The notes: a model not told the origin generated them from the sequence alone. A stretch of 26,281 bases of DNA from an uncultured Candidatus Saccharibacteria bacterium (GCA_964579195.1 CAZOFN010000001.1:1-26281), one strand, 5' to 3'; numbered from the stretch's first letter, positions 15,591 to 22,206 are shown. Made by a program: numbers and translations.

Positions 15591-15648
15591 TCACCAGATA
15601 AATTTTCCGAAGGTGAGATCGAAGGTTCGATTCCCTCATTCCCCGTCC
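15591..15648 (+). pseudogene. Degenerate tRNA 3' half (Arg- or Gly-like), directly preceding the accessory array
   Basis: TCACC...TTCCGAA-GGTGA-GATC-GAAGG-TTCGATT-CCCTC-ATTCCCC-G, with one T-stem mismatch and extra bases in the anticodon loop. No convincing 5' half. Confidence 0.6.
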
Positions 15649-15703
15649 CGAAAAAAACAAGCACCCAAGCACTCAATTTTTATACGGATTGCTGGACATC
15701 GAA
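15643..15703. repeat. Unit-proximal repeat B, copy 1
   Basis: Ungapped 48/61 identity with 16699-16759 (hand alignment); core AATTTTTATAC...CTGGACATCGAA. Confidence 0.85.
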
Positions 15704-15753
15704 TCTGAAACCAACTTGTGGCCTTGGCGTCTTATCTGGTATAAGATACATCC

Positions 15754-16089
15754 ATGGAAAATACGCCTCGAAAAGGAAAATATCGCTGGATTGTGTTTAA
15801 AAAGGGCGCAGAATGGGTAGCTGCTGCTTTGGAGTTTAATATTGTCCAGATTGGCGATGACCCGAATGTGGTGTATCTCGAATTGGAAGAAGCGGTGAGG
15901 GGTTACATAGAAGCGGCCCAAAAAATAACTGGATTCCGTGAGAAAGCTATTAACCCAGTTCTGAATCAAGAGCCAGACGCAGAATCTGAAAGTCTTTGGA
16001 ATCAGGCTCAATCAACGACGCGAGAACCAGCAACTCCCCTCCCCGAGAATGTGTTTAACTTCGGTACTAGGAATTTAGTAACGGCGTAG
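15754..16089 (+). CDS. HicB-like antitoxin
   Basis: YRWIVFKKGAEWVAAALEFNIVQIGDD...ELEEAVRGYIE is a HicB-type N-terminal pattern; directly upstream of hicA. Confidence 0.72.
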   Translation: MENTPRKGKYRWIVFKKGAEWVAAALEFNIVQIGDDPNVVYLELEEAVRGYIEAAQKITGFREKAINPVLNQEPDAESESLWNQAQSTTREPATPLPENVFNFGTRNLVTA

Positions 16090-16093
16090 CGAT

Positions 16094-16336
16094 ATGCCGC
16101 GCGGTATTTCGAATTGGACGTTTCGCGACATCCAAGCGTTTTTACTGCAACGTGGTTTTACACTTCACCACGTGCGGGGAAGCCATCACTATTTTAAGAG
16201 ATATACCAACGACAGATTCTTTATGACGCATGTCCAGCATCATGGATCGAGATCTATTCCTGAAGGGACAATGAACGCTATCATTCGGCAGTCTGGAATT
16301 CCTAAAGAAGAGTGGGTTAGTTGGACAGAAGAATGA
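16094..16336 (+). CDS. HicA family toxin
   Basis: 80 aa with FLLQRGF...RGSHHYF and IPEGTMNAIIRQSGI. Confidence 0.9.
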   Translation: MPRGISNWTFRDIQAFLLQRGFTLHHVRGSHHYFKRYTNDRFFMTHVQHHGSRSIPEGTMNAIIRQSGIPKEEWVSWTEE

Positions 16337-16369
16337 AATTTGGGAACTCCCTTCCGGCAAATACGTAGG

Positions 16370-16392
16370 TTCTAAAGTCGTTCAACAACCGC
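16370..16392. repeat. Unit-distal repeat A, copy 1 (putative att site)
   Basis: TTCTAAAGTCGTTCAACAACCGC, exact. Confidence 0.95.
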
Positions 16393-16400
16393 CGCACTAC

Positions 16401-16429
16401 TTGACAGACAATATAATACGTGCTAGGGT
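16401..16429 (+). promoter_or_regulatory. Possible sigma70 promoter of unit 2
   Basis: TTGACA, 17 nt, TAGGGT with an extended -10 TG. Confidence 0.5.
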
Positions 16430-16435
16430 GTTTTT

Positions 16436-16602
16436 GCTGATAGCAGAAGCTCGGCTTCTGCCAGCACCCACCCCAGGGCACTATGTGCCCCATGCGTGAC
16501 GTACCGTATTCCTAAGGGGCCTATGGCTCCGCCTCATCCTTTCGGGGAATTGAGAATGGATACGGCCACGGACATCACGTGTGAGGTGGGCTTTTTCTTT
16601 TT
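16436..16602 (+). ncRNA. Unassigned ~165-nt structured RNA
   Basis: Stems 16443-16450/16454-16461, 16467-16472/16585-16590, 16476-16481/16485-16490, 16492-16502/16572-16582, 16504-16511/16558-16565 and 16516-16521/16525-16530, plus TCCT-TTCG-GGGA. Ends in CTTTTTCTTTTT; no credible plus-strand ORF. Confidence 0.55.
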
Positions 16603-16644
16603 CTCTAAAAAGACTTGGTAATTCTTTTTTAGTATATCTATAAG

Positions 16645-19723: not shown

Positions 19724-19724
19724 C

Positions 19725-20450
19725 ATGGTGCTTTTTGTCGTTTCGTTCATTGCGGGAGTGCTCACCGTGCTTGCGCCGTGTATCTTGCCGTTGCTTCCGG
19801 TGGTGATTGGGTCATCTGCTTCCAGCAGAAGCCGGGCCACTCCGTATGTAGTGGTTGGCTCACTTGCACTCTCGGTTATCCTCTTCACTTTTGCACTGAA
19901 GGTCTCGACTGCCTTTATCATGATTCCGCCTGAGGTGTGGATGTATCTTTCGGGCGGTATTCTTGTGATTTTCGGCTTCACGCTTCTTTTCCCGACCCTG
20001 TGGGCACGCGTTCCGGGTATTGCCAGAATATCCACCGGCTCGAATGCTCTCCTTGGCGCCGGATACGAGCGAAAAGGTCTTCTCGGTGACGTTTTGGTGG
20101 GTGCCGCCCTCGGTCCGGTATTTTCGACCTGCTCCCCCACGTACTTCGTGATCCTTGCCTCGGTACTTCCGGCAAGTTTTATCTTGGGTTCGCTCTATCT
20201 CTTTTCTTACACGCTCGGCCTTGCCTTGATGCTTCTTCTCATCGGCCTCATAGGTGAGCGGCTTTCGGCACGACTTTCCGGATTTTCAGACTCGGGTGGT
20301 TGGTTCAAACGCGGCATCGGGGTGCTTTTTATTCTTTTAGGTATCGCGATCGCATCTGGGTACGAAAAGAAGTTGGAGACAAAACTTCTCGACAGTGGTT
20401 ACTTCGATGTGACGAAGATCGAGCAATCTCTTCTGAAAAAAGTTCAGTAA
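19725..20450 (+). CDS. ccdA: CcdA / DsbD transmembrane-domain protein
   Basis: FIAGVLTVLAPCILPLLP and GPVFSTCSP, the two membrane Cys motifs. Confidence 0.88.
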   Translation: MVLFVVSFIAGVLTVLAPCILPLLPVVIGSSASSRSRATPYVVVGSLALSVILFTFALKVSTAFIMIPPEVWMYLSGGILVIFGFTLLFPTLWARVPGIARISTGSNALLGAGYERKGLLGDVLVGAALGPVFSTCSPTYFVILASVLPASFILGSLYLFSYTLGLALMLLLIGLIGERLSARLSGFSDSGGWFKRGIGVLFILLGIAIASGYEKKLETKLLDSGYFDVTKIEQSLLKKVQ

Positions 20451-20451
20451 C

Positions 20452-21480
20452 ATGAAAACGGTCTACAGTATCGGCATTCTTCTCGTTGTGCTTGTCAGTG
20501 CAGGAATTTTTATTCTGTGGCTTTCGCCGTCTGCGGATATGAGCCCTGCATCAATTAAATTTGGTGCCGATCGATATAAGGAAATTACCAATCCTTCCGG
20601 CTTCGTGAATACCGAACAAATCAGTATTGGCGAATCAGTGGGTAAAAAAGTTATCCTGGTTGATTTCATGACCTACTCCTGCATCAATTGCCAGAGAACA
20701 TTCCCCTATCTCAATGCTTGGTACAAGAAATATAAAGATGAGGGGCTTGAAATCGTCGGTATCCACACGCCGGAGTTCGCTTTTGAGAAGGATATCGAGA
20801 ATGTGCGAAAGGCGATGAAGCAGTACGGTATCGAGCATCCGGTGGTACTGGATAACAACTACGCAACTTGGAATGCATACGGCAATAAATATTGGCCGCG
20901 GAAATATTTAATTGATATCCACGGAAACATCGTTTATGACCATGTTGGCGAGGGCGCATATGAAGAAACAGAAGTGAAAATCAAAGAACTACTTGCCAAA
21001 CGGGCCTCTGTGTTGGGCGAACGTATGAATATTTCGGGTGATTCACTTGCGGCAGAGGAAATTTTAACGTCGGGGCAAGAGGCTGTTAGCCCGGAGGTAT
21101 ATTTTGGAGCTGGCCGGAATGAACTTCTCGGAAATGGAAAAAGGTTTATGGCGGGAAAGCAAACGATTTCTCTACCAAGTACATTTTCATTAAATACCCT
21201 CTATCTGGGAGGGGTGTGGAATATAGCCGGCGAGTATGCGGAAAACGTTAGTCCCGCAGTCGTCATGTTTAAGTACCGCGCACGGGATGTGTACATGGTG
21301 GCGGGCTCAGGGGGTAAGACTTCGGTAGAAGTGCTGCGAGACGGAGCGGTGGTCAAAACAGTTGAGGTTTCAGAGGAGGGCCTGTACACACTTATCGAAA
21401 GTCCTGAGTACGGTGAGCACGTCCTTGAACTGCGAATTAGGGAGTCAGGATTGCAGGCTTTTACCTTCACGTTTGGATAG
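20452..21480 (+). CDS. TlpA/redoxin protein with DipZ-like C-terminal domain
   Basis: LVDFMTYSCINCQRT, IVGIHTPEFAFEK, YWPRKYLID, HVGEGAY, SPEVYFG and QAFTFTFG. Confidence 0.88.
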   Translation: MKTVYSIGILLVVLVSAGIFILWLSPSADMSPASIKFGADRYKEITNPSGFVNTEQISIGESVGKKVILVDFMTYSCINCQRTFPYLNAWYKKYKDEGLEIVGIHTPEFAFEKDIENVRKAMKQYGIEHPVVLDNNYATWNAYGNKYWPRKYLIDIHGNIVYDHVGEGAYEETEVKIKELLAKRASVLGERMNISGDSLAAEEILTSGQEAVSPEVYFGAGRNELLGNGKRFMAGKQTISLPSTFSLNTLYLGGVWNIAGEYAENVSPAVVMFKYRARDVYMVAGSGGKTSVEVLRDGAVVKTVEVSEEGLYTLIESPEYGEHVLELRIRESGLQAFTFTFG

Positions 21481-21516
21481 ACGGTAGACGACGTAATCTT
21501 TCCAAATAGAATAAGT

Positions 21517-21539
21517 TTCTAAAGTCGTTCAACAACCGC
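21517..21539. repeat. Repeat A, copy 4
   Basis: TTCTAAAGTCGTTCAACAACCGC, exact; followed by a 24-nt hairpin insert (21540-21563). Confidence 0.95.
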
Positions 21540-21614
21540 ACTTCGGACAAGCTCAGTGCAGGCCGCAAAAAGAAAGAAGTGGCACGCGGCTTCGTCGCAT
21601 GCTATAAATACCTT

Positions 21615-21908
21615 ATGCAGAATTCTTACGTTAGAGCCGCAAAATTGCCCGTAACTATCTTAAAGCAGGGTAAGCGATATGTGGCTCACTCGCCCTCTTT
21701 AGACTTGTCTACTTCGGGAAAATCGGAGAAGGAAGTCAAAAAGCGCTTCGAGCAAATCGTGGGGATTTTTTTTGATGAACTCGTTGAGGCTGGTACTCTC
21801 AATCCGGTATTGACTGAACTAGGTTGGAAGAAAGTCGCCAAACAATTCCAGCCGCCCCAGATTGTTTCTCAAAAGTCTATTAATGTCCGCGTGCCAGTAA
21901 TAGCGTAA
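21615..21908 (+). CDS. HicB-like antitoxin (start moved to ATG 21615)
   Basis: LPVTILKQGKRYVAHSPSLDLSTSGKSEKEVKKRFEQIVGIFF. Confidence 0.8.
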   Translation: MQNSYVRAAKLPVTILKQGKRYVAHSPSLDLSTSGKSEKEVKKRFEQIVGIFFDELVEAGTLNPVLTELGWKKVAKQFQPPQIVSQKSINVRVPVIA

Positions 21909-21912
21909 CTCC

Positions 21913-22143
21913 ATGGGCCGACTCGGCTCTATTCACTGGAAGGAATTTGAGAAGTTCCTGTTTTCGCTTGGTTGCGAGTTTAAACGCGAGGAAGGCGACC
22001 ATCGTATTTGTTGGAAGAAAGGTATGAAGCGACCGATTGTCATCCCGCGCGACAAAGACCTGCCTGCTTTTATCATTCGGAATAACTTACGATTACTCGG
22101 CGTTTCTACCGAAGAATTCCTAAAGTATCTCAAAAGACGGTAG
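21913..22143 (+). CDS. HicA family toxin
   Basis: FEKFLFSLGCEFKREEGDHRI...RPIVIPR...IIRNNLR. Confidence 0.88.
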   Translation: MGRLGSIHWKEFEKFLFSLGCEFKREEGDHRICWKKGMKRPIVIPRDKDLPAFIIRNNLRLLGVSTEEFLKYLKRR

Positions 22144-22183
22144 TATTTTCATAAACTCGGAAACTTAGCTTTCAGATCTAAGG

Positions 22184-22206
22184 TTCTAAAGTCGTTCAAC
22201 AACCGC
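22184..22206. repeat. Repeat A, copy 5 (end of array)
   Basis: TTCTAAAGTCGTTCAACAACCGC, exact, followed by CGCCA. Confidence 0.95.

Follow-up and report, generated by a model that had tools for sequence, protein, structure and literature searches.

This report concerns an array of small gene modules delimited by copies of a 23-nucleotide (nt) site in a stretch of 26,281 nt (the window), which is contig C1:1-26281 in an assembly of 822 kb and 104 contigs (G000, 95% complete) described as a tiny uncultured genome of the Candidate Phyla Radiation (CPR; Sungbacteria/Parcubacteria). The closest published parallel is found in the ssrA islands of Dehalococcoides, which consist of tandem units with a 20-bp repeat starting in the T-loop and a CcrB-like serine recombinase beside the target (PMC3146451). 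In these islands, a motif upstream of the repeat is unlike the target and some units are without integration genes (McMurdie et al. 2011, PMC3146451); the integration module includes a ParB-like gene (PMC3146451). The present array resembles them as a tandem stack behind one small RNA gene, with direct repeats bounding the units, an upstream motif, a large serine recombinase on the reverse strand by the target, units without integration genes, and a ParB-like gene, which in a related genome (G004) directly follows a site. Unlike the ssrA islands, whose units measure about 10 kb or more, the units here are of 0.3–3 kb, the repeat is no plain copy of the target end, and one true copy of the tRNA-Trp tail is all that is present; furthermore, no unit of the window carries a recombinase, and a link between recombinase and site would be a putative one.

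Composite islands of the staphylococcal cassette chromosome (SCC/SCCmec) are formed at rlmH by the large serine recombinases CcrAB or CcrC, and recombinase-less pseudo-SCC elements are moved in trans. As in SCC, the cassettes described here are stacked behind one conserved gene end with short direct repeats between them; the differences are the tRNA anchor instead of rlmH, the far smaller cassettes, the absence of a Ccr pair, and the longer repeat with its upstream box. Integrons, sedentary chromosomal integrons and clusters of attC sites lacking integron-integrases (CALINs) share with the array co-oriented cassettes which end in a conserved site, sites alike inside one genome and different from lineage to lineage, and toxin-antitoxin cassettes, and CALINs are likewise arrays without a recombinase. 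Unlike integrons, the array shows no attC hairpin and no IntI, some of its cassettes contain several genes with their own promoters, and no attI-Pc platform was recognised. An earlier note on this DNA had considered a system analogous to, but distinct from, integrons; the distinction stands, while the nearest kin appear to be accretion islands (SCC, Dehalococcoides ssrA, tycheposons). The tycheposons and satellite arrays of Prochlorococcus are described as tRNA-linked (Hackl et al., bioRxiv 10.1101/2020.12.28.424599). The tRNA anchor, the streamlined genome and the cargo-only units without integrase are common to both systems; the tycheposon arrays have partial-tRNA repeats and tyrosine recombinases, whereas here the repeat has no more than a likeness to a tRNA, and a search for tyrosine recombinases gave none.

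A description of such arrays for CPR/Patescibacteria was not found in the literature, which is not proof that none exists. The genomes of these organisms are tiny, mobile elements have seldom been recognised in them and genetics in culture is lacking; their gain of accessory genes has therefore remained largely obscure.

A repeated site at module boundaries

The 23-mer TTCTAAAGTCGTTCAACAACCGC is present in the window in four exact plus-strand copies, at 16370, 18508, 21517 and 22184, and was found in none of 100 shuffled sequences (0 in 100). A fifth copy in the same orientation is split, its left 14 nt (16645–16658) being separated from its right part (16691–16702) by an insert of 32 nt (16659–16690) rich in guanine plus cytosine (GC). 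All copies are intergenic; the distances from a plus-strand stop codon to the next copy are 33, 117, 36 and 40 nt, and the split copy is preceded by a U-tract. The earlier note, made from the sequence of this DNA, had reported the five direct copies, four of them 33–117 nt past a stop codon and one after a U-tract, as well as units of about 0.75, 0.3, 1.8, 3.0 and 0.67 kb with differing base composition and all genes on the plus strand. These observations were confirmed: the units measure 750, 310, 1828, 3009 and 667 nt, their GC content spans 0.35 to 0.63, and all credible genes of the array are on the plus strand.

A search of the remaining 822-kb assembly gave one further exact copy of the 23-mer, the sixth in total and the fifth intact one, at C16:9188 on another contig, and a degenerate site copy at C16:10121. 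The six copies are thus confined to two loci, all in accessory DNA, and the site family was found in 3 of 62 species genomes of the order; the site is thus not scattered genome-wide, which supports the earlier note. It marks module boundaries, in agreement with the same note, and modules which otherwise share nothing end in the identical site. The two HicA proteins of the array and their partners, in modules 1 and 5, are without sequence relation to each other; as these unrelated HicAB pairs have an identical site at their ends, the repeats did not arise through the duplication of a segment.

Alignment of the copies showed an invariant 28-mer, composed of AAGG, the 23-mer and a following C (usually CGC). 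Upstream of it are a T-rich stretch and, about 30–40 nt ahead, a semi-conserved box, AAACTnGGnAAT. With moderate confidence, the 23-mer may be regarded as the invariant core of a larger att-type junction element of about 30 to 65 nt. DNA folding of the site elements gave no hairpin, stable or common, on either strand (z −1.3 to +1.9), and no R''/L''-L'/R' symmetry was detected in the site. Because neither strand yields a stable or common hairpin, the site is not attC-like, as had been stated from the outset.

Several known classes of repeats were considered and rejected. A CRISPR array (clustered regularly interspaced short palindromic repeats), already dismissed in the earlier note, is ruled out by the irregular, kb-scale spacing of the 23-mer (275, 1863, 3009 and 667 nt, with genes between). 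Integrative mobile elements exploiting Xer (IMEX) and pdif modules use a dif-like site of 28 bp, in which a 6-bp spacer separates the XerC and XerD arms. Such a Xer-dependent origin is ruled out, the site containing no dif-like ATAA-N6-TTAT palindrome; the copies are all direct repeats, and the genes, on the minus strand to the left of the locus and on the plus strand to the right, do not form a terminus pattern. Repetitive extragenic palindromic (REP) sequences or bacterial interspersed mosaic elements (BIME) with a REP-associated tyrosine transposase (RAYT) do not apply to a non-palindromic site whose six copies are confined to two loci. The assembly does contain a gene for a RAYT-like Y1 transposase (G000:C93, L041, 883–1557, minus strand); its own hairpin repeat, TTGGAGGCTCGGCCTCCAA, is situated inside and just upstream of the coding sequence and is unrelated to the site. 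Coding on the minus strand was also rejected: the site repeat would read only ...AVVERL*, with no open reading frame (ORF) of at least 60 amino acids ending there, and repeat B, a sequence described below, meets a stop after 8 codons in its first copy.

Exchange of modules between genomes and the link to tRNA-Trp

The module which can be followed best between genomes is the high-GC ORF236 module (17607–18534, plus strand), consisting, in this order, of a TTGACA-hairpin, a Shine-Dalgarno sequence, the ORF (17680–18390; 61% GC), a 3' hairpin and the site (core 18508–18530). ORF236 forms an orphan family: a search of 5.8 billion proteins gave six relatives, and all genomes in which the family was found carry the site. 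Searches of metagenome_contigs, viral_contigs, phages and plasmids gave no relatives. In the order, ORF236 is present in 3 of 62 species genomes (G000, G004 and G029), the same three which contain the site family. The module was seen in five contexts in four genomes, each time with the site at its end: it comes after ORF257 in the window, after Vsr on contig C16 of the same assembly, after tRNA-Trp in G004, and after GIY-YIG both in G029 and in the Logan contig L025. At the nt level, the module of the window agrees with C16:8283-9214 at 82% and with G004 at 69%, and homology between the three extends from just before the TTGACA to 3–4 nt beyond the site, where it ends. The last 27 nt are identical between the two G000 modules, which are 82% identical overall; the chance of this is 0.82^27, or about 0.005. 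Judged from these alignments, the site is constrained beyond its surroundings.

Comparison of G029 with L025 showed homologous flanks and a different module between the second and third sites. Variation of content between relatives at the sites, which the earlier note had proposed as a test, was therefore seen in two forms, the moving ORF236 module and the swapped middle module; the outcome, from a small number of genomes, favours an exchange of modules at the sites. The site itself is uniform inside each genome and varies between genomes: its two copies in G004 are identical to each other, with 2 substitutions, and in G029 and L025 a sequence of roughly 60% similarity, GATGTAAATCCCGTCCCAYGGCCGC, is found at each boundary. 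When two positions of the 23-mer were left free, G004 was the sole match in genome_contigs and nothing was found in metagenome_contigs. Single matches to the site pattern in other genomes were inside long ORFs, and their frequency was not above that of a reversed-pattern control. The near-identical assembly GCA_016203635.1 has the modules in the same order with 99.9% identity and no indels. A search for the exact HicA and ORF236 proteins in other contexts brought up no arrangement but this one, again from the same sample.

The array begins with a copy of a tRNA end. Positions 15625–15646 are identical in 22 of 22 nt to the 3' end (C16:533-554) of the G000 tRNA-Trp gene, C16:483-554. The tRNA-like 3' end given as the start of the array in the earlier note is therefore genuine, but the anchor is tRNA-Trp and not the adjacent tRNA-Ile. 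The 13 nt ahead of this tail copy, AGATCGAAGGTTC, have no match to the tRNA; for the site copy at 22184, the left arm agrees with 12 of the 13, a score which was reached by 0 of 300 shuffles. Taken together, 15612–15646 (plus strand) looks like a hybrid junction, with a site-type left arm and a tRNA-Trp 3' end, exchanged at GGTTC in the T-loop. Both the tRNA-Trp tail copy and the split site copy are followed by repeat B (61 nt; copy 1 at 15643–15706, plus strand, with 78% identity to copy 2 at 16699–16762), and thus the tail of tRNA-Trp is equivalent in position to the right part of the site, between GGTTC and repeat B. In G004, an intact tRNA-Trp is followed by a repeat-B-like sequence, ATACCGGTT-N7-ATCGAAC (recognised by eye), and then by the ORF236 module with its site. 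The last bases of the site resemble the acceptor ends of tRNA-Trp from G004 (10/14) and G029 (9/11); against G000's own tail the score is 8/22. A true tRNA copy is present at one junction of seven.

At the orthologous locus of G004, rnhB-tRNA-Ile...DUF5679-mnmA, a DEAD-box helicase is found in place of the array. The array of the window is therefore an insertion, displaced from tRNA-Trp.

The G029-type site was also compared with tRNAs. The score against the T-arm of the G029 tRNA-Cys was 13/16, which is not decisive; the possibility of a plain tRNA tail was rejected, with one class-wide match and all single matches in the order lying within ORFs.

Recombinases and the proposed formation of the stack

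A tblastn search of the window detected neither a recombinase nor a recombinase remnant (all E > 0.2), in line with the array without integrase of the earlier note; the genome is not free of recombinases, since a large serine recombinase is encoded at tRNA-Trp. This gene (C16:909-2165, minus strand) abuts tRNA-Trp (483–554) and is the sole recombinase candidate in the assembly. Its product has Resolvase, Recombinase and Zn ribbon domains; the 3' end of the gene is gapped. The island which it heads also contains Dcm, Z1 and Vsr, and further the second ORF236 module together with the sixth site copy, the latter at a distance of 7 kb from the recombinase. No tyrosine recombinase was found in G000, neither as a PF00589 protein nor by tblastn with the enzymes of G004 and G029, although in a 95% complete assembly its absence is unproven. 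G004 and G029 possess one tyrosine recombinase each, Xer-like and in a housekeeping context, and transposases of the IS110 and TnpB/Cas12f types were absent. ORF236, which accompanies the site in each of the four genomes, was considered as a hidden recombinase and rejected on account of its predicted structure: the C-terminal domain is confidently receiver/CheY-like, and the N-terminal domain, which begins with MPLV, appears as a beta-alpha-beta (tautomerase-like) fold, poorly modelled and of low confidence.

Of 301 genomes sampled from the class, 117 had homologues of the C16 recombinase. At 22 of the 29 best homologue loci (L090-L118), a tRNA gene (for Ser, Gln, Asn, Glu, Gly, His, Trp, Tyr or Ala) was no more than about 1.5 kb away from the recombinase match, and the family is therefore tRNA-associated; at the two loci which were read, G106 and G223, the tRNA comes just past the recombinase gene on its 3' side. 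The closest homologue, in G106 (62% identity), is located at tRNA-Ser, with a GGAATGTC-hairpin after the tRNA end, as in G000.

The reading to which about an even chance is given is a site-specific accretion stack, tRNA-Trp-linked, with att-type junctions and an enzyme encoded outside the stack. Small modules would have been acquired independently and joined into a stack by the att-type element. The home of the variable island would be the 3' end of tRNA-Trp, where modules could be added or swapped singly through site-specific recombination inside the invariant 28-mer. The window would then hold a displaced piece of the island beside a rearranged tRNA-Ile locus, still beginning with the copy of the tRNA-Trp tail. 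A crossover within the 28-mer is suggested by two junctions, of which the hybrid at 15612–15646 points to GGTTC and the junction of site and repeat B to the 3' CCG. Of the enzymes in this assembly, the likeliest would be the large serine recombinase on C16, a tyrosine integrase missing from the assembly being the alternative. The repeats, their place at module boundaries, the exchange of modules from genome to genome and the tie to tRNA-Trp are shown, whereas the building of the stack by recombination at the site, the choice of enzyme and any present activity are inferred.

Several observations weigh against this accretion stack. The comparative support comes from four genomes or contigs, and such other assemblies as exist for this organism keep the same module order. 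Not every module boundary is marked, since ORF257 and the ORF236 module have no site between them. The G000 tRNA-Ser(tga) scores 11/14 against the site, which matches the resemblance to tRNA-Trp, and for this reason descent of the site from tRNA-Trp is suggestive only. With respect to the enzyme, no significant dyad was found among the site, the tRNA-Trp tail and the arm beside the C16 recombinase, nor an inverted copy of the recombinase-side arm near any site; the island of G106, with the closest homologue, has no distal direct repeat, and G029 carries an array and has no serine recombinase in its assembly.

A bolder reading, put forward tentatively, is an integron-like gene capture system of CPR bacteria, in which an unfolded linear site derived from the tRNA-Trp tail would delimit cassettes of 0.3–3 kb moved by a recombinase in trans. 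With the same reserve, the cassettes would be toxin-antitoxin pairs, an RNA-only unit and whole operons, and the enzyme possibly a large serine recombinase specific for tRNA ends. A recombinase-in-trans stack at a tRNA, if true, would provide a compact route for the acquisition of defence, toxin-antitoxin and redox genes; the short defined recombination site, perhaps together with a cognate serine recombinase, could possibly be used as a genetic tool.

Four other explanations are rated lower than the accretion stack. It is unlikely that the site is a portable homology patch, used after DNA uptake by RecA-type or homology-facilitated illegitimate recombination and without a dedicated recombinase. 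The window array has no recombinase in or beside it, a perfect identity of 28 nt is near the minimal length for homologous exchange, and uniformity within genomes together with divergence between them would fit gene conversion as well. However, 28 nt are a very poor substrate for RecA, an invariant core beside flanks diverged by 18% suggests sequence-specific recognition, and in the hybrid with the tRNA-Trp tail only GGTTC is shared.

Similarly improbable is a fossil array, that is, old complete elements at tRNA-Trp whose integrases were deleted, with nothing mobile at present. The split copy and the degenerate copy at C16:10121 would agree with decay in G000, as would the detachment of the window array from tRNA-Trp and the lack of polymorphism between two assemblies; such decay is difficult to reconcile with five letter-perfect copies across unrelated modules, with units of 0.3–0.7 kb which are too small for autonomous elements and show no recombinase remnants, and with the different module content of G029 and L025.

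Slightly less probable still is a regulatory or boundary element, bound by a regulator or a nucleoid protein and passively carried along. The site is always situated between a 3' end and the next start, in the same orientation as the genes, and a −35-like TTGACA follows several copies after 0–24 nt; yet the next promoter is 0 to >60 nt away, the last copy has no gene behind it, and promoter-like matches are not enriched. Moreover, the copies number no more than six and are restricted to accessory DNA, and module homology stops at the site. A true integron, with a folded single-stranded attC-like site and an IntI-like recombinase encoded elsewhere, is very improbable, for the resemblance to sedentary chromosomal integrons in co-oriented cassettes, conserved terminal site and toxin-antitoxin content is met by a site without hairpin or attC symmetry on either strand, by a G000 assembly without a PF00589 protein, and by tyrosine recombinases in G004 and G029 which are Xer-like and of housekeeping context.

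Composition of the array and minor observations

Module 1 (15754–16336, plus strand, as are all features of this section unless stated) encodes a 111-amino-acid protein, a putative antitoxin without Pfam match, and a HicA toxin (16094–16336; PF07927, E 9e-13). It is followed by site element copy 1 (16337–16395 by alignment, core 16370–16392). Module 2 (16393–16644) is free of ORFs, about 250 nt long, with a promoter-like start (TTGACA-17-TAGGGT), GC-rich helices and a U-tract at its end; it had no match in Rfam and no homologue in 100 relatives, and is possibly a small RNA. The Rfam scan gave tRNA as the sole match. The split site copy (16645–16702, insert included) is joined directly to repeat B copy 2. 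Module 3a (16816–17589) encodes ORF257, a multi-pass membrane protein of 257 amino acids, with no site after it, and precedes the ORF236 module (module 3b). Module 4 (18531–21539, site core 21517–21539) consists of genes for an XRE regulator, a small membrane protein, thioredoxin, a CcdA/DsbD-like protein and a TlpA-like redoxin, the last of which is patchy in the order (17 of 62 genomes). Module 5 (21540–22206) contains a 97-amino-acid protein, the second HicA (21913–22143) and the last site core (22184–22206). A palindrome with 27-nt arms (22228–22281) after the last site, before DUF5679 and mnmA, is probably the end of the island.

Promoters: The earlier note had ascribed promoters of their own to several units. 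This is borne out in part: the number of promoter-like matches was 9 as compared with 7.0 ± 2.6 in shuffled sequences, and no more than two of them are of consensus grade (18549–18577, which directly follows a site, and 19173–19200). Ahead of each high-GC island ORF there is a TTGACA, followed by a GC-rich hairpin whose sequence varies and, 17–18 nt on, by TTTTGT, TATTTG or TACAAT; such loci were seen in the window (17616–17650), in L015 (9634–9665 and 10160–10200) and in L014, L018 and L025. The element is either a promoter with a hairpin in its spacer or a bidirectional terminator.

Sequences next to sites: The GC-rich insert in the split copy (16659–16690) includes GGCGAGGCTCGCC, and similar GC-rich strings, CGCCTCGCC or GGCGGGC, come after sites in G004 and L025. 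The two site copies of G004 (L018 = G004:C41 880-960; L017 = G004:C98 6440-6520) share about 58 nt more downstream (86% over 84 nt), which are able to fold back and pair with the site (CTCGT...ACGAG, CCGCCG...CGGCGG); the sites of G000 are without such an extension.

tRNA loci: Just before the array, at 15304–15596, a disrupted outer tRNA-Ile surrounds an intact tRNA-Ile(GAT) (15446–15518), which is flanked by 15-nt inverted repeats. The outer copy is the broken ancestral gene, since the orthologous tRNA-Ile is intact at the same locus in G004. The same arrangement, an intact tRNA with short inverted repeats inside a disrupted tRNA of the same kind, was observed in G004 with a tRNA-Val-like sequence (L055 = G004:C23 2120-2310), adjoining the large serine recombinase gene of that genome. 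The latter gene is situated between inverted repeats of about 95 nt (L055, 2300–2400 and 3790–3880), and the bracketed unit could be invertible or similar to an insertion sequence. In G106 (L147 = G106:C4 771-925, minus strand 49–188), the 3' half of tRNA-Ser(gct) is tandemly duplicated; the tail of the adjacent tRNA-Ser(tga) is also duplicated, and a low-GC island of about 10 kb follows.

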